A stretch of DNA of 64,000 nucleotides from Thermoanaerobaculales bacterium (lineage in GTDB: Bacteria; Acidobacteriota; Thermoanaerobaculia; Thermoanaerobaculales; Sulfomarinibacteraceae): NCBI GenBank assembly GCA_025456145.1, contig JALOLD010000048.1, positions 6,731 through 70,730 on the forward strand. Direction: 5' to 3'. The notes beneath the pieces are model-generated. The model made no database searches and was not told the DNA's origin. It worked only from the letters and a program-made list of their open reading frames with translations. Position 1 is the first letter of the stretch. The number at the start of each line of letters is the position of its first letter. Positions 42,408 through 64,000 of the stretch are shown piece after piece. The translations under genes were made by a program, and so were the position numbers.

Positions 42408-43298
42408 ATGCGCCGGCTCGCCATCGCGCTCGCTCTGATCTCGATCTCGACCGCGGCCTGCGGCGGCGGTTCCGTCGACCGGGTCGGGTCGCTGCGGGTC
42501 GCCGCCTCGATCCCGCCCCACGGCTGGCTGGTCGGCGAGGTCGGCGGCGGGGCGGTCGAGGTGGTGACGATCCTCGGCCCCGGCGACAGCCCGGCGACCT
42601 TCCAGCCCCCCGATGGCGCGGTCAGCCGGGTCATGTCGAGCCGCGTCCTGTTCACCGCCGGCGTTCCCTTCGAAGGGGGCGCCTGGCTCGAGGCGATCGC
42701 CGGCCGGCTCGAGGTCGTCCGGCTCGACGAGGGAATCGCCGACCGGGTGTTCGGCGCCGCCGACCACGCCTCCGACGGACCCGACGACGGCCACGGTCAC
42801 CGGCCCGGCACGGTCGACCCGCACGCCTGGCTGAGCCCGCGCCGGCTGATCGTCCAGGCGGCCAGGGTCGCCGCCACCCTCGCCCGGCTTGACCCCGGGA
42901 ACGCCAGGGAGTACGCGACCAACCTCGAGAGACTGACCGGGGAGCTGGCCGAGGTCGACCGGCGCTGCGCGTCGCTGCTCGCGCCGTTCCGGGGCCGCGA
43001 GCTCGTCGTCTTCCACCCCGCGTGGGGTTACTTCGCCGACGACTACGACCTCGTCCAGGTCGCCATCGAGATCGACGGCAAGGAGCCCTCCGACGCCGAT
43101 CTCACCGCGATCCAGGAGCGCGCCCGCCAGGCCGGCGTCGGGGTGGTCTACGTCCAGCCGCAGATCGCGGGACGCTCGGCGCGCGCCGTCGCCACCGCGA
43201 TCGGCGCCCGTCTCGAGACCCTCGACCCGCTCGCCCCGGATGTCGCGGCCAACCTGCAGCGAACTGCCGAGACGATCGCCGGTGGGCTCGATGGCTGA
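42408..43298 (+). CDS. znuA: Zn/Mn ABC transporter substrate-binding lipoprotein
   Basis: Lipobox-like TAAC, His-containing loop, DPHAWLSP, FHPAWGYFA, LDPL. Confidence 0.88.
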   Translation: MRRLAIALALISISTAACGGGSVDRVGSLRVAASIPPHGWLVGEVGGGAVEVVTILGPGDSPATFQPPDGAVSRVMSSRVLFTAGVPFEGGAWLEAIAGRLEVVRLDEGIADRVFGAADHASDGPDDGHGHRPGTVDPHAWLSPRRLIVQAARVAATLARLDPGNAREYATNLERLTGELAEVDRRCASLLAPFRGRELVVFHPAWGYFADDYDLVQVAIEIDGKEPSDADLTAIQERARQAGVGVVYVQPQIAGRSARAVATAIGARLETLDPLAPDVAANLQRTAETIAGGLDG

Positions 43299-49456: not shown

Positions 49457-50478
49457 GCCCGCCCCGTCTGATCGGAACCGACGACTGGCCGGACGACGCG
49501 GTCCGCGCCCTCCTGACCCGCGCCGCCGAGCTCAAGGCCGGCGCCGCCGGCCGCTCGCTCGCCGGCAGGACGCTGATCATGGTCTTCCTCAACCCCTCGC
49601 TGCGGACCCGGACCTCCTTCGAGATCGCGATGGCCCGGCACGGCGGCCAGGCGGTGGTCCTCGAGCCGGGCCGGGGGGCGTGGGCGATGGAGACCCGGCA
49701 CGGCGTCGTCATGGACGGCGACGCGGTCGAGCACATCGTCGACGCCGCCCGGGTGCTCGGCCGCTACGGGCAGGCGGTGGCGGTCCGCGCCTTCCCCTCG
49801 GCCACGACCTGGACCGAGGCGCGACGGGACGACGTCGTCCACGCCTTCGCCCGCCACTCCGGAGTGCCGACGATCAACCTCGAGTCGGCGCGGCGCCACC
49901 CCTGCCAGGGCCTCGCCGACGCGCTGACCCTCCAGGAGAGCTTCGGCGAGCGGCCCAAGGGACGCCGCTTCGTCCTCGCCTGGGCCTGGCACCCGCGGCC
50001 GCTGCCCACCGCGGTGCCGGCTTCGGCGGCGATCGCCGCGGCCCGGCTCGGGATGGAGGTGGTCATCGCCCGGCCCCCCGGCTACGACCTCGACCCCGAC
50101 GATGTCGCGGCGATCGAGGCGGTGGCCGGACGCAACGGCGGCTCGCTGTCGATGACCGCCGACCTCGACCAGGCGGTGGCCGGCGCCGACGCGGTCTACG
50201 CCAAGAGCTGGGGCTGCCTCGCCGACTACGGACGGCCCGAGGTGGAGGCCGCCCGGCGGGCGCCGCTGCGCAGCTGGATCGTCGACGAGCGGCGGATGGC
50301 GTCGACCCGCGACGGCGCCGGGATCTTCCTCCACTGCCTGCCGGTGCGGCGCAACGTCGTCGTCACCGACGGCGTGCTCGACGGCGCGTGGTCGCGGGTC
50401 ACCGATCAGGCGGAGAACCGGCTGCACGTCCAGCGGGCGGTGCTCGAGACCATGCTCGAAGGCGAGGTGCGCGGATGA
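49453..50478 (+). CDS. argF: N-acylornithine carbamoyltransferase (ArgF', AOTCase/SOTCase type)
   Basis: NPSLRTRTSF, VMDGDAVEH, WAWHPRPLPTAV and HCLPVRRNV are the signatures of the acylated-ornithine transcarbamylases. Confidence 0.92.
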   Translation: MSPPRLIGTDDWPDDAVRALLTRAAELKAGAAGRSLAGRTLIMVFLNPSLRTRTSFEIAMARHGGQAVVLEPGRGAWAMETRHGVVMDGDAVEHIVDAARVLGRYGQAVAVRAFPSATTWTEARRDDVVHAFARHSGVPTINLESARRHPCQGLADALTLQESFGERPKGRRFVLAWAWHPRPLPTAVPASAAIAAARLGMEVVIARPPGYDLDPDDVAAIEAVAGRNGGSLSMTADLDQAVAGADAVYAKSWGCLADYGRPEVEAARRAPLRSWIVDERRMASTRDGAGIFLHCLPVRRNVVVTDGVLDGAWSRVTDQAENRLHVQRAVLETMLEGEVRG

Positions 50479-51392
50479 CCGAGCTCGTCAACGGACTCAA
50501 GGACGCGTTGGAGTACACCCGGCTCTACCGGGAGCAGGTCTTCGTCGTCAAGCTCGGCGGCGAGGTCCTGTCGTCGGCCGAGGCCCTCGACAACGTGGCG
50601 ATCCAGGTCGCCCTGCTCGAGTCGCTGTCGATCCGGGTCCTCGTGGTGCACGGCGGCGGCCCGCAGGCGAGCGAGCTGTCGCGCCGGATGGGCTTGACCC
50701 CCGAGGTCGTCGCCGGCCGCCGGGTGACCTCGCCCGAGGTCCTCGAGGTGGCCAAGATGGTCTATGGCGGCCGGCTCAACGTCGACGTGGTCGCCGCGCT
50801 GCGCGGCCACGGCGTGTCGGCGGTCGGGCTGACCGGCATCGACGCCGGGTTGGTCACGGTCCACCGGCGGCCGCCGGTCGAGGTCACCGACGACGCCGGC
50901 ACCACCCGGACCGTCGACTTCGGCGAGGTCGGCGACGTCGACTCGGTCGACACGACGCTGCTCGACGTGCTGCTCCCGCGGGGCCACGTCCCGGTGGTCG
51001 CCTCGCTCGCCGCGGACGGCGCCGGCCGGGTGATGAACGTCAACGCCGACACCCTGGCGGCGCGGCTCGCCGCGGCCCTCGGCGCCGAGAAGCTGATCTA
51101 CCTGACCGGCGCCCCGGGGCTGCTGCGCGACGCCGCCGACCCGACCTCGCTGGTCGCCTTCGCGGCGCCCGAGGACCTCCAGGCGCTGCTCGGCTCGGGC
51201 TCGGTCAAGGGCGGGATGCGGCCCAAGGTCGAGGCCTGCCTGACGGCGGTCAAGGGCGGCGTCCGGCGCACCCACATCATCGACGGACGGACCCCCGACG
51301 CGCTGCTCCTCGAGCTCTTCACCGGGGTCGGCAGCGGCACGATGATCGTCGGCGAGCGCGAGAAGCGGAGCTACGAGGCGGCCGGCCGGTGA
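50475..51392 (+). CDS. argB: Acylglutamate kinase
   Basis: VVKLGG, VHGGGPQ, GRRVT, NVNADTLA, GGMRPKV. No fused GNAT domain. Confidence 0.93.
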   Translation: MTELVNGLKDALEYTRLYREQVFVVKLGGEVLSSAEALDNVAIQVALLESLSIRVLVVHGGGPQASELSRRMGLTPEVVAGRRVTSPEVLEVAKMVYGGRLNVDVVAALRGHGVSAVGLTGIDAGLVTVHRRPPVEVTDDAGTTRTVDFGEVGDVDSVDTTLLDVLLPRGHVPVVASLAADGAGRVMNVNADTLAARLAAALGAEKLIYLTGAPGLLRDAADPTSLVAFAAPEDLQALLGSGSVKGGMRPKVEACLTAVKGGVRRTHIIDGRTPDALLLELFTGVGSGTMIVGEREKRSYEAAGR

Positions 51393-52459
51393 TCGACCCG
51401 GTCTCCCTCCTCGTCGACCTCGTCCGGACGCCGAGCCCGTCCGGCGACGAGGGCCGGGCGGCCGGGGTGCTCGCCGACTGGGCGCGGGCGCACCGGCTCG
51501 AGCCGGAGATCGACGACGCCGCGGTCCGGCTGGTCGTCGGCGGGACCCGACCGGGACCGACGCTGCTTCTCGCCTCGCACCTCGACACCGTGCCGCCGGG
51601 CGAGGGGTGGTCGGTCGCGCCCTATGACGGGGTGCTGCGCGACGGCCGGCTGACCGGTCGCGGAGCGGTCGACGCCAAGGCCTCGGTGGCCGCGATGGCG
51701 GCCGCCGCCGCGGCTCTCGCCGCGGCCGGCGGTCCCGCCGCCGGCCGGCTGGTCGTCCTCGCCACCTACTCCGAGGAGACCCGCGACACGACGATGCCGC
51801 GCGCCCTCGAACGGCTGGGCGGCGCCCCGGAGGCCGCGGTGGTCGGCGAGCCGACCTCGCTCGAGCCGTGCATCGCCCAGCGCGGCCAGCTGCTGGTCGA
51901 GCTTTCCTGGACCGGCGACCAGGTCCACGCCGGCTGGGCGGCCGGCCGGCGCCCGGCGCCGGTCAACGCGATCTCGGTCGCGGCCCGCGACCTGGTCGCC
52001 CTCGAGGGGCTGCGGTTCGAGCGTCAGCACCCGCTGCTCGGACCGGTGGCGGTCAACCCGACCGAGATCGCCGCCGGGGTCGCGCGCAACGTCACCCCGC
52101 CCATCTGCTCCGCCATGCTCGACATCCGCACCACCCCGGCCTACGAGCACGCCGAGATCGTGGCGATGCTCCGCGAGCGGCTCGCGGCCCGGGTCGAGGT
52201 CTACTCCGACCGGCTGGTGCCGGCCGAGACCCCGGCCGGCTCGCCTCTCCTCGCGGCGGTGACGAGGGTCCGTCCGGCGTCCGTCCCCTTCGCCTCGCCG
52301 ACCTGCTCGGACTGGGTCTTTCTGCGCCACCTCGACGCGGTCAAGCTCGGGCCCGGCGACTCGCGGCGGTCGCACACCGCCGATGAGGCGATCGAGCTCG
52401 AGGAGGTCCGCGCCGGCGCCCGGCTCTACGCCGACATCGCACGGGAGGTCCTGAGATGA
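51389..52459 (+). CDS. argE: M20 deacylase (ArgE-like; acts on N-acylcitrulline in an ArgF' pathway)
   Basis: SHLDTVP, GRGAVDAK, SEE, GEPT, GPGDSRRSHTADE. Confidence 0.88.
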   Translation: MIDPVSLLVDLVRTPSPSGDEGRAAGVLADWARAHRLEPEIDDAAVRLVVGGTRPGPTLLLASHLDTVPPGEGWSVAPYDGVLRDGRLTGRGAVDAKASVAAMAAAAAALAAAGGPAAGRLVVLATYSEETRDTTMPRALERLGGAPEAAVVGEPTSLEPCIAQRGQLLVELSWTGDQVHAGWAAGRRPAPVNAISVAARDLVALEGLRFERQHPLLGPVAVNPTEIAAGVARNVTPPICSAMLDIRTTPAYEHAEIVAMLRERLAARVEVYSDRLVPAETPAGSPLLAAVTRVRPASVPFASPTCSDWVFLRHLDAVKLGPGDSRRSHTADEAIELEEVRAGARLYADIAREVLR

Positions 52460-53823
52460 AGCGCAGCCTGTGGGGCGACGGCCGAGGGCTCGACGAGTCG
52501 ATCGCGGCCTACACCGCGGGCGACGACCGGCGGTGGGACCAGCGGCTGCTGCGCTGGGACGTCATCGGCACGATGGCCCACGCCGCCGGCCTCGCCCGGA
52601 TCGGGCTGCTGGAGGCGGCCGAGCACGCGGCCCTGGCCGGCGAGCTCGCGCGGACCCTCGCCGACGCCGACGCCGGGATCTTCGCGGTCACCGAGGACGA
52701 CGAGGACGCCCACTCGGCCCTCGAGCACCGGCTCATCGACCGGCTCGGCGAGCTCGGCGAGAAGGTCCACGCCGGCCGGTCGCGCAATGACCAGGTGATG
52801 GCGGCGCTCCGGCTCTACCTGCGCGCCGAGCTGATCGAGCTGCAGCGCGAGGTGATCGCCGCGGCGCGCGCCCTGCTCGGCTTCGGACGGGCCAACGCCT
52901 CGGTCGTCCTGCCCGGTTTCACCCACCTGCGGCGGGCCATGCCGTCGTCGATCGGCCTGTGGGCGGCGGGTTACGCCGAGGTGCTCCTCGACGATCTCGG
53001 GCCGCTCGGCGCCGCTCTCGAGCTCGCCGACCGCGGACCCCTGGGCAGTGCCGCCGGCTACGGCGCGCCGCTGCCCCTCGACCGCCGGGGCGTGTCCGAC
53101 GCCCTCGGCTTCGCCGCGCCCCAGCTCGCCAGCACCGCGGTCCAGCTGTCGCGCGGCAAGCTCGAGGCGGTGGTGCTCGGCGGGCTGTGGACGGTGGCCC
53201 GCGATCTCGCGGCCCTGTCCTGGGACGTCATCCTCTACACCTCCGACGAGCACGGCTATCTGGTGCTGCCCGGCGAGCTCGCGACCGGCTCGAGCATCAT
53301 GCCGCACAAGCACAACCCCGATGTCTTCGAGCTCACCCGCGGCCGCGCCGGGGTGGTCGCCGGGCTCGCGGTCCAGGCGATGGCGGTGGCCGGCTCGCTG
53401 CCCGGCGGCTACCACCGCGATCTGCAGCTCACCAAGGGACCGGTGATGGAGGGGATCGACACCGTCCGGGCGATGCTCCGGATGGTCGCCGACGCGGTGC
53501 CCCGGCTCGGCGTCGACGCCGGGCGCTGCGCCGCATCGCTGTCCGGCGACCTGCTCGCGACCGACGAGGTCTTCCGCCGGGTCCGCGCGGGGGCGCCGTT
53601 CCGCGCCGCCTACCGCGAGGTCGCCGCCGAGATCGCCGGCGGCGCGGTCCCGCCGGCCCTCGAGCCGGCCGAGGTCCTCGCCGTGCGGCGCCACCTCGGG
53701 GGGGCCGGGGCGCCCGCCCTCGACGAGCTCGAGGAGGTCGCCGGACGGGCCGAGCGGCGGCTCGACGAACGCCACCGAGCCGCGTCCTCGGCAATCGACC
53801 GTTTGATCGGGGCGAGCCGGTGA
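52456..53823 (+). CDS. argH: Argininosuccinate lyase
   Basis: HAGRSRNDQV, PGFTHL, TGSSIMPHKHNPDVFEL, GYHRDLQ. Confidence 0.95.
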   Translation: MKRSLWGDGRGLDESIAAYTAGDDRRWDQRLLRWDVIGTMAHAAGLARIGLLEAAEHAALAGELARTLADADAGIFAVTEDDEDAHSALEHRLIDRLGELGEKVHAGRSRNDQVMAALRLYLRAELIELQREVIAAARALLGFGRANASVVLPGFTHLRRAMPSSIGLWAAGYAEVLLDDLGPLGAALELADRGPLGSAAGYGAPLPLDRRGVSDALGFAAPQLASTAVQLSRGKLEAVVLGGLWTVARDLAALSWDVILYTSDEHGYLVLPGELATGSSIMPHKHNPDVFELTRGRAGVVAGLAVQAMAVAGSLPGGYHRDLQLTKGPVMEGIDTVRAMLRMVADAVPRLGVDAGRCAASLSGDLLATDEVFRRVRAGAPFRAAYREVAAEIAGGAVPPALEPAEVLAVRRHLGGAGAPALDELEEVAGRAERRLDERHRAASSAIDRLIGASR

Positions 53824-54389: not shown

Positions 54390-54513
54390 GGGATGGTGGT
54401 GCGGGCGTCCCGCTCGCAGTCTTGCGATCGACTGGATCGAGATACCGATGGCTGGGGCGAGCGTGAGTCGGGGCCGGTCAGGCCCTGAGCGAACCGGACA
54501 GGTACGGTTCGGG

Positions 54514-55311
54514 CTAGGGGCTGGTCAAGGACCAGAAGCCGGTCGTCCCGTCCTCGAAACCGTCGGCGAAGACGAGGTCGGTGGCGAACGGCCACTCGAC
54601 CTGCCGGGCCTGGTAGACCTCGGCCGGGGCGGTCGCCGGGACGGGGTCCTGGGCCCAGGCGGTGAGCTGGATCTGGTCGTACAGGTTCCAGCTCGTAGCG
54701 TCGAAGGTGATCGGCTGGACGACGGTCTCACAGGCGCCGGCGGCGACCGCGATGTCGACCCCGGCGAGACCCTGCATCACCGTGTTGCGGTTGTAGGACT
54801 CGGTCAGGGGGTAGGTCGCGAGCGACTGGACGACGAACACCCGCATCGTCTTGCCCGTCCCGCCCGGCTCGACGCACACCTCGACCGAGACCTCGAAGGT
54901 CGGGCCGGCGAGCTGGGTCGCCATGATGTCGACCGTGACATCGGTGGGAATCGCCTGCCGGGCGATGAGCTTGCTCTCGAAGGTGCTGATCGGCCAGGCG
55001 TCGAACAGCCCGTCGTAGTAGTACGACGGGTAGCCGAGGAAGATCGGGTCGTAGAAGGCCTTGCGGGCGTCACCCCAGGGGGTGGCGTAGCTGTCGGTGT
55101 GGTGGATCGAGATCGACGCGAACGTGTCGGGGTAGGTCTCGACGAGGTACGTGACCGTGGGACCCGCGGTCGTGCAGGTGCCTCACCAGTCCGCCGTGAT
55201 GTACTCCCCGAGCACCGTACGCTCCGCCGAGAAGACCTCTCCGACCGTGAAGATCGCCGCGGCGAGCGCCGCGCCGACCACCAGGGAAGCTCCGAAGGGC
55301 CCTGTTCTCAT
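54514..55311 (-). CDS. Predicted selenoprotein A: secreted Omp28-like thioredoxin-fold protein, W-U-G-T-C, 265 aa
   Basis: GAGGAGG before ATG 55311; signal peptide; ...EYITADW-TGA(55185-55183, codon 43)-GTC-TTAGP... continues in frame into ORF 54514-54924; ends VFADGFEDGTTGFWSLTSP. Confidence 0.85.
55153..55171 (-). promoter_or_regulatory. Candidate bacterial SECIS hairpin A
   Basis: GACCGCGG-GTC-CCACGGTC, starting 11 nt after the TGA; 7 of 8 pairs (one C.A mismatch). Confidence 0.7.
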
Positions 55312-55331
55312 GATCGCCTCCTCCTCGGCGA

Positions 55332-55368
55332 AGATTGTATACAATCGCTCTCACATTGTATACAATCT
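55332..55368. promoter_or_regulatory. Twin palindromic operators ATTGTATACAAT in the divergent promoter region
   Basis: GATTGTATACAATC (55333-55346) and ATTGTATACAAT (55355-55366); centres 21 bp apart. Confidence 0.8.
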
Positions 55369-55420
55369 GCAAGCGTCAGCCCAACGACCCGGCGACGGGT
55401 CGGGGCGCCGGAGGTGGCCG

Positions 55421-55987
55421 GTGACGGAAGCTCGCTCGCGCAGGACCAACCTCGCGATCGCTCGCCCGATGTGGCTCGCGATCGTGCTCGTCGCGGTCGC
55501 CGCGACCGCCGCCGCCGGGCCGCCGCCCGACTTCCGGCTCCAGGACCTCGACGGAAACTGGGTCACCCTGTCCGACCACGTCGGCAAGGACGTGGTCTAT
55601 GTGACCTTCTGGGCGACCTGGTGCGTGCCCTGTCGGCGCGAGATGCCCTACCTCCAGCAGCTCCACGAGGACCTCGCCGACCGGGGCCTGACGATCATCG
55701 GGGTCAACACCGACCCGCCGGGGACGACGAGCAAGATCAAGCCCTACATCAAGCAGTACAAGATCGGCTACCTCACCGTCCTCGACCCGAACAACAACGT
55801 CCTCGACAAGTACAACCCGACCCGCGAGCTGCCCTACGCGGTGCTCGTCGACCGCACGGGCAACGTCCACGAGGTCTTCGCCGGCTACCGCAAGGGCGAC
55901 GAGGTGCGGCTGCGCGAGAAGGTCCTCGAGCTGCTCGACGCACCGACCGGCGGGGAGGGGGAGGCTCCGTCCGGTGACCCGAGCTAG
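55421..55987 (+). CDS. TlpA/ResA-family thiol-disulfide reductase
   Basis: GGAGG before GTG 55421 (alternative ATG 55469); signal or anchor segment; PDFRLQDLDG, FWATWCVPCRREMP, LPYAVLVDRTG. Confidence 0.92.
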   Translation: MTEARSRRTNLAIARPMWLAIVLVAVAATAAAGPPPDFRLQDLDGNWVTLSDHVGKDVVYVTFWATWCVPCRREMPYLQQLHEDLADRGLTIIGVNTDPPGTTSKIKPYIKQYKIGYLTVLDPNNNVLDKYNPTRELPYAVLVDRTGNVHEVFAGYRKGDEVRLREKVLELLDAPTGGEGEAPSGDPS

Positions 55988-57464
55988 CGCCCTCGCGGCG
56001 GTGCTCCTCGTCGCCCTCGCCCCGACCGCGGCGGCCGGGGACGACGAGAGCCCGCCGGCCAAGCGCTACCGGATCTTCGGCCAGCTGACCACCGAGCTCG
56101 AGCTCAACCAGGCCGAGGACGAGAACGATCCCGAGGACGGCGACTACACCAAGCTCAAGCAGATCGTCGCGGTCAACCTCGAGTGGTCCAAGCTCACCGT
56201 CGGCGTCCAGCTCGAGCTGCTCGACTACTCCGACCCCGAGCTCGTCGACCGGCTCGACCTCGACCGGTTGCACGACACCCTCGAGCTGCGCCGCTACTAT
56301 GTCGACTACCAGGGCGACCACCTCTCGGGGCGGCTCGGCACCTTCTTCTCGTCGCTCGGCCGCGGGCTCACGCTGTATGTCCAGAAGAACGACGTGCTCG
56401 GCTTCGACGAGCCGATCCACGGCGCGTTCGCGAAGCTCAACCTCGAGCACTTCGACATCTCGGCGGTCGGCGGCACGGTGACCGAGCCCCAGCTCCAGAA
56501 CCAGTTCAACCGCGAGTTCGAGGACGAGGTCTATGGCGGCCGGGTCATTGCCCGCCTGCCCCTCGACCTCTACCTCGGCGGCTCGGCGGTCCGCGCCGAG
56601 CTCGACCGCTTCTTCCCCGAGGGCACCGACGAGGTCGAGGTCTGGTCGGCCGAGGGCGGCGGGACCGGGCTCTTCGGCTTGCTCGACATCGCCGCCGAGT
56701 GGTCCGAGCTGACCAAGACCGAGGCGACCCGGGTGCGCGACGGGTACGGCCGGTACTTCTCGGCGGCCGCCTATGTCGGTCCGGTCTCGATCCTCGCCGA
56801 GTACAAGGACTACTACAACTTCGCCTACCGCTACAACCTGCCGCCCAATGCCGGCCGCGCCGACGAGTCCTACGATCACAACGACGTCAAGGGACCGCGG
56901 CTGCTGGTCTCGGCCGACATCCTGGCGACCGGCTCGATCGTCCACGGAAGCTACGCCGAGTTCGACAGCCACAGGACCTCGAGCTCGCCCGGCGGCACCG
57001 AGGGCGACCGTCAGACCGAGTGGTACGCCGGGCTCGAGCAGACGATCGGCCGGGTCTACTTCCAGGGCAGCTACTTCGACCGGGACTGGCTCGACCGCGG
57101 GATCACCGAGACCCACACGATCGGCGACTTCCACCTGACGGTGGGCGGCTCGGGCGAGATCATCCTGGGCTGGGACGAGCGGCTCGAGGAGGCGGACTAC
57201 TTCAGCCTCGGCACCACCCGCACCACCGCCGCCTACTCGCTCTCGCCGTGGGGCACGGTGTCGCTGCGCTACTCGTGGGAGGAGCGCAGCGGCTTCGACA
57301 AGGAGGACTTCTGGGGCGTCGAGGTCCAGGCCCTGCCGCGCAGCGACCTGATCATCACGCTGTTCGGCGGGGGCGATCCGGGCGGTCTGGTCTGCGCCGG
57401 CGGTCAGTGCCGGATCGAGCCCCGCTTCAAGGGCTACCGGGCCAACATCACGTGGCGGTTCTGA
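55974..57464 (+). CDS. DUF6029-like outer-membrane beta-barrel with a C-terminal Cys pair
   Basis: Signal peptide; RLGTFFSSLGRGLTL; AEYKDY; ends GGLVCAGGQCRIEPRFKGYRANITWRF (terminal Phe beta-signal); overlaps tlpA. Confidence 0.8.
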   Translation: MTRASALAAVLLVALAPTAAAGDDESPPAKRYRIFGQLTTELELNQAEDENDPEDGDYTKLKQIVAVNLEWSKLTVGVQLELLDYSDPELVDRLDLDRLHDTLELRRYYVDYQGDHLSGRLGTFFSSLGRGLTLYVQKNDVLGFDEPIHGAFAKLNLEHFDISAVGGTVTEPQLQNQFNREFEDEVYGGRVIARLPLDLYLGGSAVRAELDRFFPEGTDEVEVWSAEGGGTGLFGLLDIAAEWSELTKTEATRVRDGYGRYFSAAAYVGPVSILAEYKDYYNFAYRYNLPPNAGRADESYDHNDVKGPRLLVSADILATGSIVHGSYAEFDSHRTSSSPGGTEGDRQTEWYAGLEQTIGRVYFQGSYFDRDWLDRGITETHTIGDFHLTVGGSGEIILGWDERLEEADYFSLGTTRTTAAYSLSPWGTVSLRYSWEERSGFDKEDFWGVEVQALPRSDLIITLFGGGDPGGLVCAGGQCRIEPRFKGYRANITWRF

Positions 57465-57532
57465 TGGCGACCCCCGGTCATCGAACCCCCGCATCGCGAC
57501 GCACATCTCCCCGACCGGGGATGGGAGACGGT

Positions 57533-59119
57533 ATGTTCACCAGGATCCGGCTCGTACCCGCTATCGTCCTCACGGCGACGCTGCTCATCGTCACCGTCGC
57601 CGGCGCCGCCGACCGGGTGGTGCTCGGCGAGTACTTCACCAACCTCTATTGAACCTCCTGTGCGACCACGGGTCCCGTGGTCGAGCAGATCGCCGAGGAC
57701 TACCCGGACCGGTTCGCCGCGCTGTCGATGCACGTCAACGGCGACGGCTTCGACACGCCCTGGGGGCAGGACCGGCTCGACTCGTTCTACGGCATCCCCG
57801 GCGCGGTCCCGACCTTCATGGTCGACGCGCTGTGGAACTGCCAGTCCCCCGGCGACTACCGGTACTACGTCGAGCAGCAGCTCGCCAGCCCAACCGACAT
57901 GACCCTCGAGCTGTCGGGCAGCCCGGTCGGCGGAGCGACCTGGGACATCACCGCGCGGCTCTGTCACGAGGGCAGCGGCTCGCGCCCGATCCGGCTCTTC
58001 ACCGCGGCCGCCCTCGACGGCTATCCCAACCCGCCGCGCCACTCGACCAACGTCCTGCGGCAGAACGCCTTCGAGACCGATCTGGCGATCGCCGGCGGCG
58101 CCTGCGAGACCGTCACGACGCGGATCACCTTCGACCCCGAGAGCATGGCCGCCACCTCGGACATCGTGATCATCGCCTGGGCCCAGAAGCCGGCCGCCAC
58201 CGCGCCGACGACGGTCTACCAGGCGGCCGTCATGCGCTGGCCCTTCCCGGCCGGCAGCCAGCTCACCACCATCGAGATCGAGCCGGCCGACGCGACCGTC
58301 GCGGTCGGCGGCACGGTCGGCTTCACCGCCCAGGGCAAGGACCAGCACGGCGCCGAGTACCCGCTCGTCAATCCCGTCTGGAGCCTCGGGACGGGGAGCG
58401 GCGGTGGGACCTTCGACCCCGGTACCGGGACCACGACCACCTTCACCGCGACCGCGGTCGGAACCCGCCAGCTCCTGTGCAGCGAGGGCGGCGTCACCGG
58501 CGGCGCCATCGTCACCATCACCGCAGCGCCGCGCCTCGCGACCATCGAGATCGAACCTGCCGACGCCTCCGTCGCGGTCGGCGGGACGGTCGCCTTCACC
58601 GCCACCGGTCGCGACCAGTACGGCGACGAGTTTCCGCTCGGCGCCCCGGTGTGGACGATCGACGGCGACGGCGACGGGACCTTCGAGCCGGCCACCGGCG
58701 CCGCCACCACCTTCACCGCCTCGTACCCCGGGAGCGCGACCGTGCGCTGCACCGACGGCGCCGTCGTCGGCAGCACCGGGCTCGAGATCACCGGCGACGC
58801 GCCGCGGCTCGCCACGATCACGGTGAGCCCGGCGAGCGCGACCATCCGGGTCGGCGACAGCCTCGCGCTCAGCGCGACCGGCACCGACCAGTACGGCCGC
58901 GCCATCGCCCTCGCCGACCCGGTCTGGCGGGTCGAGGGCGTCGGCGCCGGCACCCTCGAGCCGGCCGGCGGCAGCGCCGCGACGACCTTCACCGCCACCG
59001 CGGTGGGCAGCGTCTCGGTGATCTGCAGCGACGACGGCGTCGAGGGGTCGGCGGCCGTCACCATCACCGCCGCCGGTCTGCCCGCGCCGCGCAAGGTCAC
59101 CAGGCGGGTCGCGCCGTGA
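57533..59119 (+). CDS. Predicted selenoprotein B: secreted Omp28-like thioredoxin fold (Y-U-T-S-C) plus three Ig-like (Big_2) repeats, 528 aa
   Basis: ATG 57533; signal peptide; DRVVLGEYFTNLY-TGA(57650-57652, codon 40)-TSC-ATTGPVV continues in frame into ORF 57677-59119. Confidence 0.85.
57664..57682 (+). promoter_or_regulatory. Candidate bacterial SECIS hairpin B
   Basis: GACCACGG-GTC-CCGTGGTC, perfect 8-bp stem starting 11 nt after the TGA. Confidence 0.78.
58262..59070 (+). repeat. Three ~90-aa Ig-like coding repeats
   Basis: L.TI...PA.A...VG......A.G.DQ.G...PVW...G.GT..P....TTFTA repeated three times. Confidence 0.85.
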
Positions 59120-59265
59120 CGCCATCCGCCGACGCCCGCCGGATCACCAGGGCGCGACCCGGTCTCGCGGCACCGTATCGAATCCTCGATCGGCCCTCGG
59201 CCGGGCCGACTGGAGGTGTGGCCCGAACCCACACGGCCGAACAGCTCAGGAGAGAGGGAGGACCA

Positions 59266-61023
59266 ATGCGCAAGGCAACACTTCTGATCGGCATCCTGCT
59301 CGCAGCCGGGATCACGATCGCCGCGGACGGCGTGCCGCTCGACGCCTATCCGAAGACGAGCATCGCCGAGGACGCCACGGCGACCTGGTGCGGCTTCTGC
59401 CCGAACGCCTACGCCGGGCTCGAGATCGTGCACCAGAACTTCGGCTACGACGCCTTTGTCAGCGTCCGCTACTACGAGACGAGCGGCAGCTACGGCACCA
59501 CCGAGACCGACGCCCGCAACGACGCCTACGGTGTCACGGGCTTTCCGACGGTGATCATCGACGGTACCAACCGCTTCGTCGGCGCCGGTACCGCGACCGC
59601 AGCCACCGGCCAGCCCTACCTCAGCACGGTCGAGGTGGCAAGCCTGGCGCCGGCCCCGATTCGGATCGACATCGACTCGTTCAACCCGGCGACCGGTGCA
59701 ATCTCGGCCACCGTCACCATGTACTCGGCGACCGCCTCGCTGAGCAACGAAACCGTGCTCTTCGTGCTCGTCGAGGACAACGTCGCGGCGAGCCACACCC
59801 ACGTCGCCCGCGACCTGATCTACGACACCATCACCCTGAGCGGCGCGGGCTCGACCGCAGTGTTCAACAAGAGCTTCGTGATCGACCCGGGCTGGAACCA
59901 GGGCAACCTCCACGCGGTCGCGCTCGTCCAGCACGAAAACCCCCCGGGTGTTCCCCGGGAGGTCCTCCAGGCAGCCTCGACCTGGCCCCAGCCGTCCTAC
60001 CGGGTCCGCGGCATGGTGCCCTTCAGCCCGATCAGCTTCGGCGCATCCTCGGGCACGCAGATGGGCGAGGAGTTCACGGTCATGAACACCGGGCTGACCG
60101 ACACCTTCACCATCGACGTCGTGGTCGACTCGGCGCCCGCCGGGTGGCAGACGACTCTGGTCGACGGTTCCGGAACGCCGCAGACCCCGCCCTACGCTTT
60201 TGGCCTCAACAACGAGGCAGCCACCACCTTCCGGGTCGACGTGACGCCGAGCTCGTCGGGCCAGATGGACTACCACGTCGAGATCGACTCGCCCAACCTG
60301 AGCTCGCCTCTGACCATCCCCTTCACCTACTTCACCGACGACCTCGACGTGATGCTGGTCGACGACGACGGCGGCGACCCCTTCGAGCTCTACTTCACCG
60401 CGGTGCTCGACGCCGCGGGCAAGAGCTACGGCGTCTGGAACCGCAGCCTGAGCCCGCTGTCGGCGGACGTCGCGACCAACACCAACGTGCTCATCTGGAA
60501 CGCCGGCTTCACCTCGCCGTCGCTCGACGCCGACGACAAGGCCTTCGTCGGCCAGTACCTCGACGCCGGCAAGGCGCTCTTCTTGAGCGGTCAGGACGTC
60601 GGCTGGGACCTCAACGAGAACAACCCCGACCCCGTGTGGTACCAGACCTACCTGCACGCCACCTATATCCGTGACGACACCAACATCATGTACCTCGACG
60701 GCGTCGCCGGCGACCCGGTGAGCGACGGGTTGACCCTGCACATCGCCGGCGGCTCGGGCGCCAACAACCAGGACTACCCGGACGAGATCGAGGCCGCCGA
60801 CGCCGACGCCACCGAGATCCTGCACTACCAGGGCGACGGCTGCGGCGCGATCCGGGCGCTCGACAGCGTGTCGAAGGCGCGGCTGGTCTACCTCGGCTTC
60901 GGCTTCGAGGGCATCGACGACGCCCAGGACCGCTCGGACCTGCTGCTCGACGCGCTGGGCTGGATCGGCCCCGAGCTCCTCATCGACGGCTTCGAGACCG
61001 GCGACCTGAGCGCCTGGCAGTAG
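59266..61023 (+). CDS. Secreted Omp28-like thioredoxin-fold protein, Cys form (W-C-G-F-C), 585 aa
   Basis: GGAGG before ATG 59266; signal peptide; EDATATWCGFCP, YGVTGFPTVIIDG, LVEDN...HVARD, LHAVALVQ...EVLQA; ends LIDGFETGDLSAWQ. Confidence 0.85.
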   Translation: MRKATLLIGILLAAGITIAADGVPLDAYPKTSIAEDATATWCGFCPNAYAGLEIVHQNFGYDAFVSVRYYETSGSYGTTETDARNDAYGVTGFPTVIIDGTNRFVGAGTATAATGQPYLSTVEVASLAPAPIRIDIDSFNPATGAISATVTMYSATASLSNETVLFVLVEDNVAASHTHVARDLIYDTITLSGAGSTAVFNKSFVIDPGWNQGNLHAVALVQHENPPGVPREVLQAASTWPQPSYRVRGMVPFSPISFGASSGTQMGEEFTVMNTGLTDTFTIDVVVDSAPAGWQTTLVDGSGTPQTPPYAFGLNNEAATTFRVDVTPSSSGQMDYHVEIDSPNLSSPLTIPFTYFTDDLDVMLVDDDGGDPFELYFTAVLDAAGKSYGVWNRSLSPLSADVATNTNVLIWNAGFTSPSLDADDKAFVGQYLDAGKALFLSGQDVGWDLNENNPDPVWYQTYLHATYIRDDTNIMYLDGVAGDPVSDGLTLHIAGGSGANNQDYPDEIEAADADATEILHYQGDGCGAIRALDSVSKARLVYLGFGFEGIDDAQDRSDLLLDALGWIGPELLIDGFETGDLSAWQ

Positions 61024-61052
61024 TGGCGCACCGACCGTTTCCGGCTCGCTTC

Positions 61053-61078
61053 ACCCCCGCCCCGGCGGGGGTCTCTTT
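61053..61078 (+). terminator. Putative intrinsic terminator
   Basis: ACCCCCGCC-CC-GGCGGGGGT followed by CTCTTT. Confidence 0.5.
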
Positions 61079-61212
61079 CGGTCCGGAGGTGGGAGGCCCG
61101 AAGGTCGGGAGGGGTCGGCAGCGCCGAGCTTCCCGGCGATCGCGGTCGTCGCAATAGCCGAGCGGGGGCGCCGTCCCCCGCCGCAACCAACACGAGCAAG
61201 GAGGAGGACCCC

Positions 61213-62025
61213 ATGAGCAACGCAGCGATGCAACGGGTGCTGGTCGCGCTCGCGGCGGTGTCGTTGGCCGCGAGCGGCGCCGTCGGCGCGGATCGGATGG
61301 TGGTCGTCGAGCACTTCACCGCCACCTGGTGAGGGTCCTGCGTGACCGCGGGTCCCGTGGTCAGCAACATGATCGACGCCTACCCGAACACTCTCGCCTT
61401 CATCGCGATCCACGACGGCGACAGCTACGAGGTCCCCTGGGGGACCATGCGCGATGGGGTGTACCAGGCGGCCTGGACCCCCTTCGACTGCCAGGACGGT
61501 CTGTATGACGCGTGGCCGATCACCAGCTACGAGTCGAAGTTCCTCGCCCGCCAGGCGATCCCCACCGACGTCACCATCGACCTCGAGGTCTTCGGCGCCG
61601 GCACCGACTGGAACGTCAGCGCGGTGGTCTGCATCGAGCCGGGCGGGACCGGCAAGACGATGAAGGTCTGGATGGCCCAGGTCCTCGACCACTACGGTCC
61701 GGCGAACTTCGACCGGAACATGGTCCGCTCCGGCACGAACGGGGTCGAGATCACCCTCGCCCCGTCCGAGTGCACGACCGTCACCGAGAGCCTCACCCTC
61801 GACTCGGTCAGCCAGGCGTCGCCGGACACCGTCAAGTTCTTCGCCTGGGCCCAGGACACGGTCTTCGTCTACAACCCGCAGGTCCAGTACATCAACGGAA
61901 CCTGGTACGGCGCCTGGTTCGGCGAGATCTACCAGGGCGCCAAGGCCCTCGCGCCCTTCGAGGGCGCCTTCCGGGACGGCTTCGAGGACGGTACCACCTC
62001 GGCCTGGGGCAGCGTCTCGCCCTGA
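61213..62025 (+). CDS. Predicted selenoprotein C: secreted Omp28-like thioredoxin-fold protein, W-U-G-S-C, 270 aa
   Basis: GGAGGAGG before ATG 61213; signal peptide; DRMVVVEHFTATW-TGA(61330-61332, codon 40)-GSC-VTAGPVV continues in frame into ORF 61342-62025; close paralogue of A; ends FRDGFEDGTTSAWGSVSP. Confidence 0.87.
61344..61362 (+). promoter_or_regulatory. Candidate bacterial SECIS hairpin C
   Basis: GACCGCGG-GTC-CCGTGGTC, 8-bp stem with one G.U pair, starting 11 nt after the TGA. Confidence 0.78.
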
Positions 62026-62047
62026 CCCTGCCGTCCTCATCACCCTC

Positions 62048-62080
62048 GGCCGCCCCCGCTCCGGCGGGGGCGGTCGTTTT
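62048..62080 (+). terminator. Intrinsic terminator after selenoprotein C
   Basis: GGCCGCCCCCGC-TCCG-GCGGGGGCGGTC followed by GTTTT. Confidence 0.65.
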
Positions 62081-62226
62081 CCGCCACGCCTCGCGACGCC
62101 GTAAGGTCCAACCACCGGCAACCCGGAGGCGTCATAATCGTACTGCCTGGCAACGCCCGGCCCCGTCCCGGGCCGGCCCGATCACGGCCGGCGCGGGGCG
62201 CCGCCCACGTCTCCGGAGGACCACTC

Positions 62227-64000
62227 ATGCGCCACGCTCTCGCGATCCCGATGCTCGCGATCATCGCCCTCGCGGCGACCGCCGCGGCGGCCGATGGCGG
62301 CACCCGCCTGCTCCGCTACCCCGACATCCACGGCGACACCGTGGTCTTCTGCTATGGGGGCGATCTGTGGACCGCCCCCGCCGCGGGTGGCGAGGCCACC
62401 CGTCTCACCGCCCACCCCGGGCAGGAGCTGTTCCCGCGGTTCTCGCCCGATGGGCGCTGGATCGCCTTCACCGGCCAGTACGACGGCGACGAGCAGGTCT
62501 ATGTCATGCCGTCGGGCGGCGGCGAGCCGCGGCGGCTGACCTGGTACCCGGCCGCCGGCCCGCTGCCGCCGCGCTGGGGGACCGACCACCAGGTCTTCGG
62601 TTGGACCCGCGACGGCCGCTCGGTGCTCTTCCGCTCGATGCGCGAGGCCAGCCCCGAGGTCGACGGCCGGCTCTACACCGTGCCCGTCGAGGGCGGTCTG
62701 CCCACCCCCCTGCCGATGCCCAACTCGGGGGCCGGCGACCTCTCGCCCGACGGCACGCGGATCGTCTACTCGCCGCTGTTCCGCGACTTCCGCCACTGGA
62801 AGCGCTACCAGGGCGGCTGGGCCCAGGACCTGTGGATCTTCGACCTCGCCACCGCCGAGGTGACGCCGGTCGCCCACGGCCCGCGCACCGAGCGCGACCC
62901 GATGTGGATCGGCGACCGGGTCTACTTCGTCTCCGACCGCGACGACCGGCTCAACCTCTTCGTCGCCGACCCGGCGGGCGGGGCGGTCGAGCAGCTCACC
63001 TTCCACGACCCGTGGGATGTCCGCTGGCCGGCCACCGACCACGAGGGCCGCATCGTCTACGAGCTCGACGGCGAGCTGCGGGTCTTCGACATCGGCTCGC
63101 GGACCGACCGCGCGATCACCGTCACGGTCCCCGACGACGGTTTGTGGAAGCGGCCCCGCCGGGTCGAGGCGGAAGGTCTCATCGAGGACTTCGGTCTGTC
63201 GCCCAAGGGCGAGCGGGCGCTCTTCACCGCCCGCGGCGAGGTCTTCACCGCACCCATCGAGAAGGGTCGCACCCGCAACCTGACCCGCTCCTCCGGCGCC
63301 CACGACCGGGACGCCGTCTGGTCGCCCGACGGGCGCACCGTCGCCTTCATCTCGGACGGCTCGGGCGAGGACGAGGTCTGGCTGGTCGACCAGGAGGGCG
63401 GCGAGCCGCCCCGCCAGCTGACCCGCGGCCACGCCGTCCGGTTGCGCGACCTCCTCTGGTCGCCCGACGGCGAGCGCCTCGCGGTGACCGACATCTTCGG
63501 CCGGCTCTTCGTGGTCGCGGCGAGCGACGGCGCCGAGACCGCGGTCGCCGACGACATCCTCGGCGGCATCTTCGACGCCGCCTGGTCGCCCGACGGCGGC
63601 CACCTCGCCTTCAGCCTGCGCAACGAGGCCGGGGTGCGGCGGATCCACATCTGGACCGTCGCGACGGGCGAGACCCGTCAGGTGACCTCCGACTTCTTCG
63701 CCGCCTACAGCCCGGCCTGGGACCCCGACGGGCGGTATCTCTTCTACATCTCGGAGCGGGCCTATGCGCCGCAGATCTCCGATCTCGAGTTCGACTACGC
63801 CGGCAACCGGCGGGACGGGATCTTCGCGGTCGCCCTGCGCCGGGACGTCGAGCCGCTCCTGCCCCCCGAGAGCGACGAGGTGAAGATCGACGGCGACGAC
63901 GGCACGGACGGCGCGGACGGCTCGACCAAGGGCGAGGACGCGAAGAAGAACAAGGGCGAGAAGAAGAACGGCAAGGGTGACGAGGGCGGTGCCGAGCCGG
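62227..64000 (+). CDS. Tricorn-like S41 protease (3' truncated by window edge)
   Basis: GGAGG before ATG 62227; signal peptide; [52 protein letters not shown]. Confidence 0.9.

Follow-up and report, generated by a model that had tools for sequence, protein, structure and literature searches.

Three genes interrupted by a single TGA

We describe a gene cluster at positions 54514 to 62025 of a 64,000-nucleotide stretch of DNA (the window) from a Thermoanaerobaculales bacterium of the phylum Acidobacteriota. Three genes of the cluster each carry one in-frame TGA, and we hold with high confidence that, taken as a whole, they are best explained as intact bacterial selenoprotein genes for exported thioredoxin/Omp28-like oxidoreductases that contain selenocysteine (Sec, U). 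Gene 1 (54514-55311, minus strand) encodes a short form of 265 amino acids with U43 in the motif EYITADWUGTC (TGA at 55183-55185). Gene 2 (57533-59119, plus strand) encodes a long form of 528 amino acids with U40 in EYFTNLYUTSC (TGA at 57650-57652), and gene 3 (61213-62025, plus strand) a short form of 270 amino acids with U40 in EHFTATWUGSC (TGA at 61330-61332). With TGA translated as U, 222 further codons follow in gene 1 before its stop, 488 in gene 2, and 230 in gene 3; the latter two genes also end in a TGA of their own. The original prediction, made from the sequence of the window, had placed one TGA at codons 40 to 43 of each gene with a long open frame beyond it, and the translations agree. 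It had also pointed to a neighboring paralog with cysteine at this site, and EDATATWCGFC is indeed read there in the 585-residue product of the gene at 59266-61023 (plus strand; the Cys paralog).

An open reading frame (ORF) listing under translation table 11 breaks genes 1, 2, and 3 at their TGA. Ribosome-binding sites precede the N-terminal pieces and not the post-TGA ORFs: genes 1 and 3 have strong Shine-Dalgarno sequences (GAGGAGG or AGGAGG) 5-8 nt before their ATG, and gene 2 has a weaker one, GGGAGA. The upstream pieces begin like signal peptides, as had been proposed, and 23 of 24 N-termini in the family pass a crude hydrophobicity check, with at least one basic residue followed by a 12-residue hydrophobic stretch of mean Kyte-Doolittle value above 2.0; the remaining one is cut off by the end of its contig. 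The signal peptides of genes 1-3 show no lipobox cysteine, and their products are therefore not taken to be lipoproteins.

The source genome, whose contig C12 contains the window, is a draft in 142 contigs that totals 4.56 Mb and is 91.75% complete, and a draft assembled from a metagenome could hold TGAs that are sequencing or assembly errors. This explanation is effectively refuted, since the same codons occur in contigs of two other studies (X5 and X6; ~99% identical), which cover the three sites, and in orthologs from many separate assemblies. For X6 records 22, 23, and 29 and X5 records 14 and 17, all differences are listed and none falls at the three TGAs; X5 record 21 also covers the gene 3 TGA and was not used, as 3 of its 11 differences are unlisted. 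We looked for TGC or TGT in place of TGA in these independent assemblies, and the TGAs are kept. The intergenic stretch before gene 3 (61026-61105) shows several substitutions and one-base indels relative to the contigs of the other studies, and the coding parts show few differences. The ratio of nonsynonymous to synonymous substitution rates (dN/dS) of gene 3 against two orthologs is 0.22-0.25 before the TGA and 0.24-0.39 after it; values below 1 on both sides indicate selection on both parts.

The genome holds all four components of Sec machinery for which we looked: SelA (396.6 bits), the specific winged-helix domain of SelB within a 645-residue open frame, SelD (373.9 bits), and tRNA-SeC(tca) on contig C34. 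SelA is present in 41 of 41 related genomes, including all 15 with family matches, and so agrees with Sec decoding without discriminating for it. TGA is the main stop codon of this genome, closing 2162 of 2999 long open frames. As it also ends genes 2 and 3, the internal codons are locally recoded and the code is not reassigned. Formate dehydrogenase alpha FdhA (TIGR01553) has no match over the cut-off in the source genome (best 44.6 bits versus 814), and this classic selenoprotein may be missing from a Sec-using genome of the stated completeness. Secreted redox proteins may therefore be a main reason that the lineage keeps its Sec machinery.

Further candidate selenoprotein genes, identified by motif, lie elsewhere in the genome. 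They encode a membrane-anchored peroxiredoxin-like protein with FYRGFWUPFC (contig C5, 19975-21072, plus strand), a redoxin-like protein with FWFPTUGGC (C124, up to 10577, plus strand), and a KPTUGCA protein similar to the DUF1573/OS_HP2 UxC family (C130, 119598-120893, plus strand). A stable hairpin follows the UGA in all three. A genome-wide scan of third-position GC returned 217 selenoprotein candidates, 50 of them with a redox-like motif, and most are adjacent genes in the same frame; the scan was not sensitive, its thresholds having filtered out genes 2 and 3 themselves.

The TGA column and the hairpin past it

Gene 3, with C in place of U, was used to query 41 related genomes. Matches were obtained in 15 of these, counting its own genome, 13 of the 24 other genomes of the same family, and 1 of 16 genomes of the neighboring family. 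Stops are not scattered among the 40 matches listed, where exactly one TGA occurs in 29, two in 1, and none in 10. Scripts run on the fetched loci put the TGA of 31 distinct sequences into one x-U-x-x-C column; the source genome has a fourth copy, on contig C3, which brings the distinct TGA homologs to 32, spanning at least 9 genera and a second phylum, a pattern that chance cannot explain. Orthologs of gene 3 are 72-75% identical to it with 1 TGA in each, and gene 1 aligns with gene 3 at 46% identity, again with 1 TGA. The sequence before the codon (ER-VLGEYFT) is conserved and in frame among homologs.

Exchange of TGA for a cysteine codon at this column, which the original prediction had put forward as a way to examine its claim, is evident among the homologs, with 9 Cys members set against the 32 with TGA. 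The Cys members include one from a Holophagae metagenome-assembled genome (MAG; locus L038). The script list held 11 C rows, two of which (L005 and L026, minus strand) were chance regex matches in unrelated frames and were dropped. A Phycisphaerae MAG (L037) carries two copies, one with Cys and the other with TGA, and in L030, from the same genus as the source genome, the ortholog of the Cys paralog is a Sec form (GUSYC). Full-length database homologs carry WCDDC, WCGPC, NCPAC, or LCDQC at the motif, and the nearest named ones are labeled Acidobacteria bacterium and Holophagae bacterium.

A tree of 52 N-terminal modules (29 Sec, 23 Cys) requires at least 8 changes between Sec and Cys, and branches whose Shimodaira-Hasegawa-like (SH-like) support is 95% or higher force 6 of these. 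It was built with FastTree from a MAFFT alignment and rooted at the midpoint, and we claim no direction for these changes. Supported Sec/Cys sister pairs include L029/L038 and L037/L037, and a locus from the family of the source genome is the sister of L038, the Holophagae locus. Genes 1, 2, and 3 fall in three different groups: those of gene 2 (with L016, L017, L030, and L032) and gene 3 are all-Sec with 100% support, and that of gene 1 is all-Sec with weak support (85%). Rows were limited to stop-free modules that continue for at least 200 residues past the motif, leaving out L018, L034, a partial Cys copy of L017, and L030b; the 16 database Cys proteins were hand-picked among the first entries of the homolog lists. 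One row (L050) comes from an unpublished genome, G089, and no conclusion rests on it or on G192.

These data bear on the possibility that the TGA is a true stop, in a pseudogene or in a gene that yields a 40-residue leader and perhaps a signal-less, N-terminally truncated protein from an internal start. Table-11 ORFs do begin shortly past the TGA, databases hold such truncated calls, and frameshifted copies that keep the TGA occur in two relatives, the frame changing shortly after it (L009 in G009:C29; L011/L036 in G001:C42). We give this explanation hardly any credence. The codon occupies one and the same column across the distinct homologs, genera, and phyla counted above; the upstream peptide is conserved in frame behind ribosome-binding sites at the upstream ATGs; and truncation would remove the signal peptide as well as the redox motif. 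SelA is split over several frames in G001 and G007, and as G001 is the source of one frameshifted copy, the frame-shifted family copies in G001 are likely assembly indels.

Eleven nucleotides past the UGA, genes 1-3 share a hairpin of the form GACC(R)CGG-GUC-CCGYGGUC with an 8-bp stem, resembling a selenocysteine insertion sequence (SECIS) and encoding a conserved peptide, T-(A/T)-G-P-V-V. In gene 1 (55153-55171, minus strand) it reads GACCGCGG-GUC-CCACGGUC, with 7 of 8 pairs and one C-A mismatch. In gene 2 (57664-57682, plus strand) it reads GACCACGG-GUC-CCGUGGUC, with G23 and U24 (counted from the U of UGA) in the loop, and in gene 3 (61344-61362, plus strand) GACCGCGG-GUC-CCGUGGUC, with one G-U pair. 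As a single sequence, gene 2 folds with a z score of -2.64, and 3 of 200 shuffles fold as well; the Cys paralog lacks a comparable fold (z +0.33).

Covariation carries the case for this element. In an alignment of 25 Sec sequences, 96.5% of 200 pairing cells are paired and 4 of 8 pairs show compensatory changes on both sides. Pair 15-33 occurs as GC (19 sequences), CG (2), and AU (1); pair 17-31 as CG (24) and AU (1); pair 19-29 as AU (12), GU (10), and GC (3); and pair 21-27 as GC (23) and CG (2). In several double changes both substitutions are synonymous, as in a G-C to C-G swap through GCG to GCC and CCC to CCG, which points to selection on the RNA. None of 500 shuffles matches the observed pairing or covariation, and sliding the partners by 1-3 columns lowers pairing to 31-48%. 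The loop reads G-U/G-C, with G23 invariant in the 25 sequences and position 24 a U or a G. The SECIS of E. coli fdhF likewise has G23 and U24 in its loop. The alignment takes in 25 of the 32 distinct Sec sequences; the seven left out (L010:2447, L030:2169, L037, L042, L045, L046, and L047) come from subfamilies whose downstream peptide differs. Hairpins lie at the same register in the other Sec subfamilies (L042, L045, L046, L047, L037, L030b, and L010b), with z scores from -0.95 to +1.44, which are not significant.

Were the UGA read through with another residue, by near-cognate decoding as Trp or Cys or by other recoding, a protein with W/C-x-x-C would result. The Cys forms of the family are functional alternatives to Sec, and the inserted residue is itself deduced by comparison, which together lend this idea some ground. 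We nonetheless regard it as very improbable: the genome encodes the full Sec machinery and uses TGA as its main stop codon, a covarying hairpin sits at the distance expected for a bacterial SECIS and is absent from the Cys paralog, and three other candidate selenoprotein genes also have a hairpin past the UGA. Decoding of the internal TGA as Sec is, on these comparative grounds, strongly supported.

Fold, relatives, and annotation of the family

The window proteins are UxxC thioredoxin-fold selenoproteins, a known kind with a curated Omp28-related relative. For all four proteins, the Cys paralog included, the best NCBIfam match is NF045500, "Omp28-related selenoprotein" (E 0.013 to 1e-10), at scores of 14.9, 16.6, 25.1, and, for the Cys paralog, 41.5 bits, all below the cut-off of 200. 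None of 201 genomes of the phylum passes that cut-off, a tally that includes the unpublished G089 and G192. The table of a 2026 review lists NF045500 as "Hypothetical protein GOS_C" with the motif UxxC (PMC13188914). GOS_C was described in 2008 from marine reads, with 74 TGA-containing sequences and 312 Cys homologs, a thioredoxin-like fold, UxxC, a SECIS-like element, and a function given there as not known (PMC2398784). The original prediction had hinted at a novel family of Omp28-like selenoproteins; this did not hold, as NF045500/GOS_C, itself predicted and never characterized, is already on record and the window proteins are its distant relatives.

The two share UxxC in a thioredoxin-like fold, alternation of Sec and Cys, and a SECIS-like hairpin past the UGA, and differ in that GOS_C is described, in the parts of those sources that concern it, without gene context or function. 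Because the window proteins score below the NF045500 cut-off and have tails and a gene neighborhood of their own, we treat them as a separate subfamily, a separation that rests on scores against the NF045500 model and on the published description of GOS_C. Our literature search found no publication joining Omp28 with a selenoprotein, none treating selenoprotein, Acidobacteria, SECIS, and thioredoxin-like together, and only three relevant ones that mention GOS_C along with selenoproteins.

Among solved structures, the family profile best matches Porphyromonas gingivalis HBP35 (PDB 5y1a; E 3.6e-5), followed by many thioredoxins, and the HBP35 motif FTAEWCGYC aligns on the U column. Together with sub-threshold Pfam matches, these profile matches to PDB thioredoxins suggest that the window proteins are thioredoxin-like. 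HBP35 is surface-exposed and reduces insulin faster than E. coli thioredoxin, an activity that needs C48 and C51 (PMC2907840). As is predicted for the family, it is exported and attached to the surface; its thioredoxin motif lies at the N-terminus, a second domain comes next, and a sorting signal closes the C-terminus. Unlike the window proteins, it has Cys rather than Sec and comes from Bacteroidota, and similarity outside the motif region is marginal. HBP35 is sorted by the C-terminal domain of type IX secretion (T9SS), for which the family searches found no counterpart: Pfam and NCBIfam searches of the window-protein C-termini gave no match and no T9SS domain.

The Omp28 family (PF11551; NF033782, Omp28 family outer membrane lipoprotein) is a further relative. 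The Cys paralog matches PF11551 over 154 residues at 30.4 bits against a gathering score of 34.9, and reaches the cut-off only in a genome-wide search in which neighboring same-frame stretches are added; the products of genes 1-3 give no PF11551 match. NF033782 describes an outer membrane lipoprotein, unlike the window Sec proteins with their lack of a lipobox. Sec in place of the nucleophilic Cys of CxxC in an extracytoplasmic thioredoxin fold is also predicted for other bacterial families, such as the DsbA-like, DsbG-like, TlpA/redoxin-like, and peroxiredoxin (Prx)-like UxxC families (Table 2 of PMC2398784). Like the window proteins, these families are known only from sequence. The window proteins differ from them in joining a thioredoxin module to an Omp28-like beta domain and surface-display tails, and in forming a cluster of several paralogs.

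The three architectures differ past the thioredoxin-like module. In gene 2 an N-terminal thioredoxin-like and beta-rich module is followed by repeated immunoglobulin (Ig)-like Big_2 domains (Pfam, 5.9e-9), with no DGFESG tail; scanned alone, its last 292 residues give no match, although the whole protein matches Big_2. The Cys paralog has an Omp28-like module, then a domain of ~340 residues, then the tail DGFETGDLSAWQ; its C-terminal 345 residues (59986-61020) match no Pfam family at E up to 0.01. Gene 1 ends in FADGFEDGTTGFWSLTSP and gene 3 in FRDGFEDGTTSAWGSVSP.

This tail recurs across the proteome. In a six-frame search of the source genome, GF[ED].G.{3,5}W gave 59 matches, 51 of them within 12 residues of a stop. 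The tail is nearly always (L/I)F-x-DGFE(S/D/T)G-x4-W-S-x3-P, ending 5 residues before the stop in frames of ~40-1900 codons. Within the window it closes the genes that end at 54514, 61023, and 62025, as well as a further minus-strand gene (position 43140 on the reverse complement of contig C12), and it is also found in homologs L007, L010, L013, L014, L022, and L038. No Pfam or NCBIfam model covers it, and the literature search found no paper containing DGFESG and nothing under sorting-signal terms. Its sequence suggests a tag for sorting or anchoring at the C-terminus, used across the proteome and lacking a membrane helix, and it could be a new sorting signal.

Many database copies of the gene are cut short. 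A Cys-only profile retrieves 8261 cluster representatives at E <=0.001, 1987 at <=1e-10, and 300 at <=1e-30. Among the best 150, 56 have E..T...CxxC, 9 are full-length with variant motifs, and 85 start right after the motif, typically with M(I/L)D.YPD; a start there is what a gene caller produces at an in-frame TGA, and contig ends could explain some of the 85. Splitting of these genes by ordinary callers had been proposed from the window, and it recurs in the 75 database homologs of gene 3, most of which are 214-220 residues long (~80% of the query), begin at the Met after the TGA, and are named "hypothetical protein." The 65 full-length representatives match NF045500 in 59 cases (best E 1.7e-32), NF033782 in 33, Pfam Thioredoxin in 16 (E up to 0.001), and Pfam Omp28 in 3. 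Of these 65, 8 carry GC-type dockerins and 10 Dockerin_1 domains, and others carry PEP-CTERM, MYXO-CTERM, or IPTL-CTERM signals; the dockerin, PEP-CTERM, and MYXO-CTERM ends of family members elsewhere fit surface display. One full-length Cys member is fused to multiheme domains, with matches to MtrC/MtrF domains II/IV, the doubled CXXCH motif, and decaheme models. What is new here is the separate, large, and systematically miscalled subfamily.

Gene neighborhood and proposed role

The gene order is gene 1 (minus strand), a redoxin gene, a DUF6029 gene, gene 2, the Cys paralog, gene 3, and a beta-propeller gene. The redoxin (55469-55987, plus strand) is a TlpA/ResA-like, membrane-anchored protein with WCVPC (Pfam AhpC-TSA, 1.2e-23; Redoxin, 6.2e-21); its start was chosen inside a listed ORF at 55151-55987. 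The DUF6029 gene (55974-57464, plus strand; 496 residues; PF19494 at 1.1e-15) overlaps the end of the redoxin gene by 14 nt, and its product, with a signal-peptide-like N-terminus, is probably an outer-membrane beta-barrel. In the account given in PMC9603273, Wzi-type outer-membrane barrels show HHpred similarity to DUF6029. Downstream, a PD40/TolB-like beta-propeller gene (62227-64000, plus strand) continues beyond the window end and is kept only in close relatives (L008, L032); whether it belongs to the system is uncertain. Upstream, a plus-strand arginine-biosynthesis operon (49680-53823), with an amino-acid kinase fusion, an M20 peptidase, and an argH-like Lyase_1 protein, is unrelated to the selenoprotein cluster.

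Part of this arrangement is conserved. DUF6029 lies directly upstream of a gene of the gene 2 type in L015, L016, L017, L018, L026, L030, L032, L035, L036, and the Holophagae locus L038, and a redoxin is in the cluster in L007, L009, L010, L011/L036, L026, and L038. TlpA-like, DUF6029, and Omp28-like genes are linked in 7-10 loci, including the Holophagae MAG with its Cys form. Besides the subfamily itself, this conserved cluster of redoxin, barrel, and Omp28-like genes and the C-terminal tail that the proteins share are new here.

We propose the following course from gene to protein. Each internal UGA would be decoded as Sec by SelB and tRNA-Sec, recruited by the short in-frame SECIS hairpin. 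With their N-terminal signal peptides, the proteins are probably exported through the general secretory (Sec) pathway and cleaved by signal peptidase I, so that the mature protein would start ~12 residues before a thioredoxin-type U-x-x-C, with Sec standing in for the nucleophilic N-terminal Cys (C48 in HBP35). Next would come a beta-rich Omp28/HBP35-like domain, then a part for surface display, made up of Ig-like repeats in gene 2 and of the 20-residue DGFE(S/D)G...W...P tail in genes 1 and 3 and the Cys paralog. The proteins would most likely be extracytoplasmic or cell-surface selenol/thiol-disulfide oxidoreductases, with the co-transcribed TlpA-like redoxin as the likely periplasmic electron donor that keeps their U-x-x-C sites reduced and the DUF6029 barrel as the likely outer-membrane partner. 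We infer selenium insertion, export, redox activity, the TlpA relay, and the partnership with the barrel from the comparisons presented above.

Several observations weigh against this account. Rfam gives no SECIS match, whether the whole window is searched at the gathering score or 54400-62100 at E up to 10. (Six weak Rfam matches in the latter interval belong to microRNA and snoRNA models and were taken as chance.) The 60-nt fold of gene 1, with its C-A mismatch, has a z score of -0.55 and that of gene 3 one of -1.13, neither significant. This GC-rich genome contains 36 copies of a degenerate hairpin motif, only 3 of them after a TGA, and the hairpin therefore becomes informative only when fixed register and covariation are added; it also coincides with a conserved peptide, and part of its conservation is therefore at the level of the protein. 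For gene 2, dN/dS gives a weak signal, at 0.44-1.05 upstream of the TGA, mostly in the signal peptide, and 0.37-0.72 downstream. Contigs from RNA libraries (X16, X18) match parts of the cluster at 100% and none bridges a TGA; with DNA carry-over possible, we do not count them as evidence of expression. The Pfam Thioredoxin model (PF00085) scores gene 1 at 17.8 bits and gene 3 at 22.7 against a gathering score of 23.5, and does not match gene 2. Signal peptides were judged by the hydrophobicity script only, the TlpA relay and the DUF6029 partnership are deduced from synteny, and the presence of selenium in the proteins is deduced from sequence comparison.

The proteins could also be real selenoproteins whose main role is to capture a surface ligand, heme or metal, as HBP35 does, with U-x-x-C binding a metal or metalloid instead of acting on disulfides and with TlpA and DUF6029 serving uptake or assembly. 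HBP35 binds hemin through residues 135-344, which make up its C-terminal two thirds, and growth at low hemin depends on it, as described in PMC2907840; one family representative is fused to MtrC/MtrF-type multiheme cytochrome domains; and C140 and C187 of gene 3, in the beta-rich domain, are nearly invariant. We consider such a role unlikely, if of some weight, because the part of HBP35 that binds hemin aligns weakly with the family profile (2.0 bits, in a second stretch), the thioredoxin-type motif is the most conserved feature of the family, and a dedicated TlpA-like reductase fits redox cycling better.

Starting again from genes 1-3 as genes for exported Sec oxidoreductases, we tentatively suggest, as a possibility well short of an even chance, a dedicated selenol relay in the cell envelope. 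A TlpA-like periplasmic reductase would feed several surface-displayed Sec-thioredoxin/Omp28-like proteins that work with a Wzi-like DUF6029 barrel. These proteins would be sorted by an undescribed C-terminal tag, (L/I)F-x-DGFE(S/D)G-x4-W-S-x3-P-COOH, borne by ~51 large proteins of this genome; in this protein family it stands where other phyla have PEP-CTERM, MYXO-CTERM, dockerin, or T9SS signals. If true, the subfamily would be among the larger unannotated selenoprotein families of metagenomes from sediments and wetlands, and miscalled Sec forms would make up over half of its nearest cluster representatives.

The cluster offers a clean, well-supported example of selenoproteins cut by public annotation, and many records would be corrected if the subfamily were included in a curated model. 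Little is understood about exported selenoproteins, and the link to a redoxin and a barrel provides a concrete, testable idea of how a selenol site may be kept reduced outside the cytoplasm.

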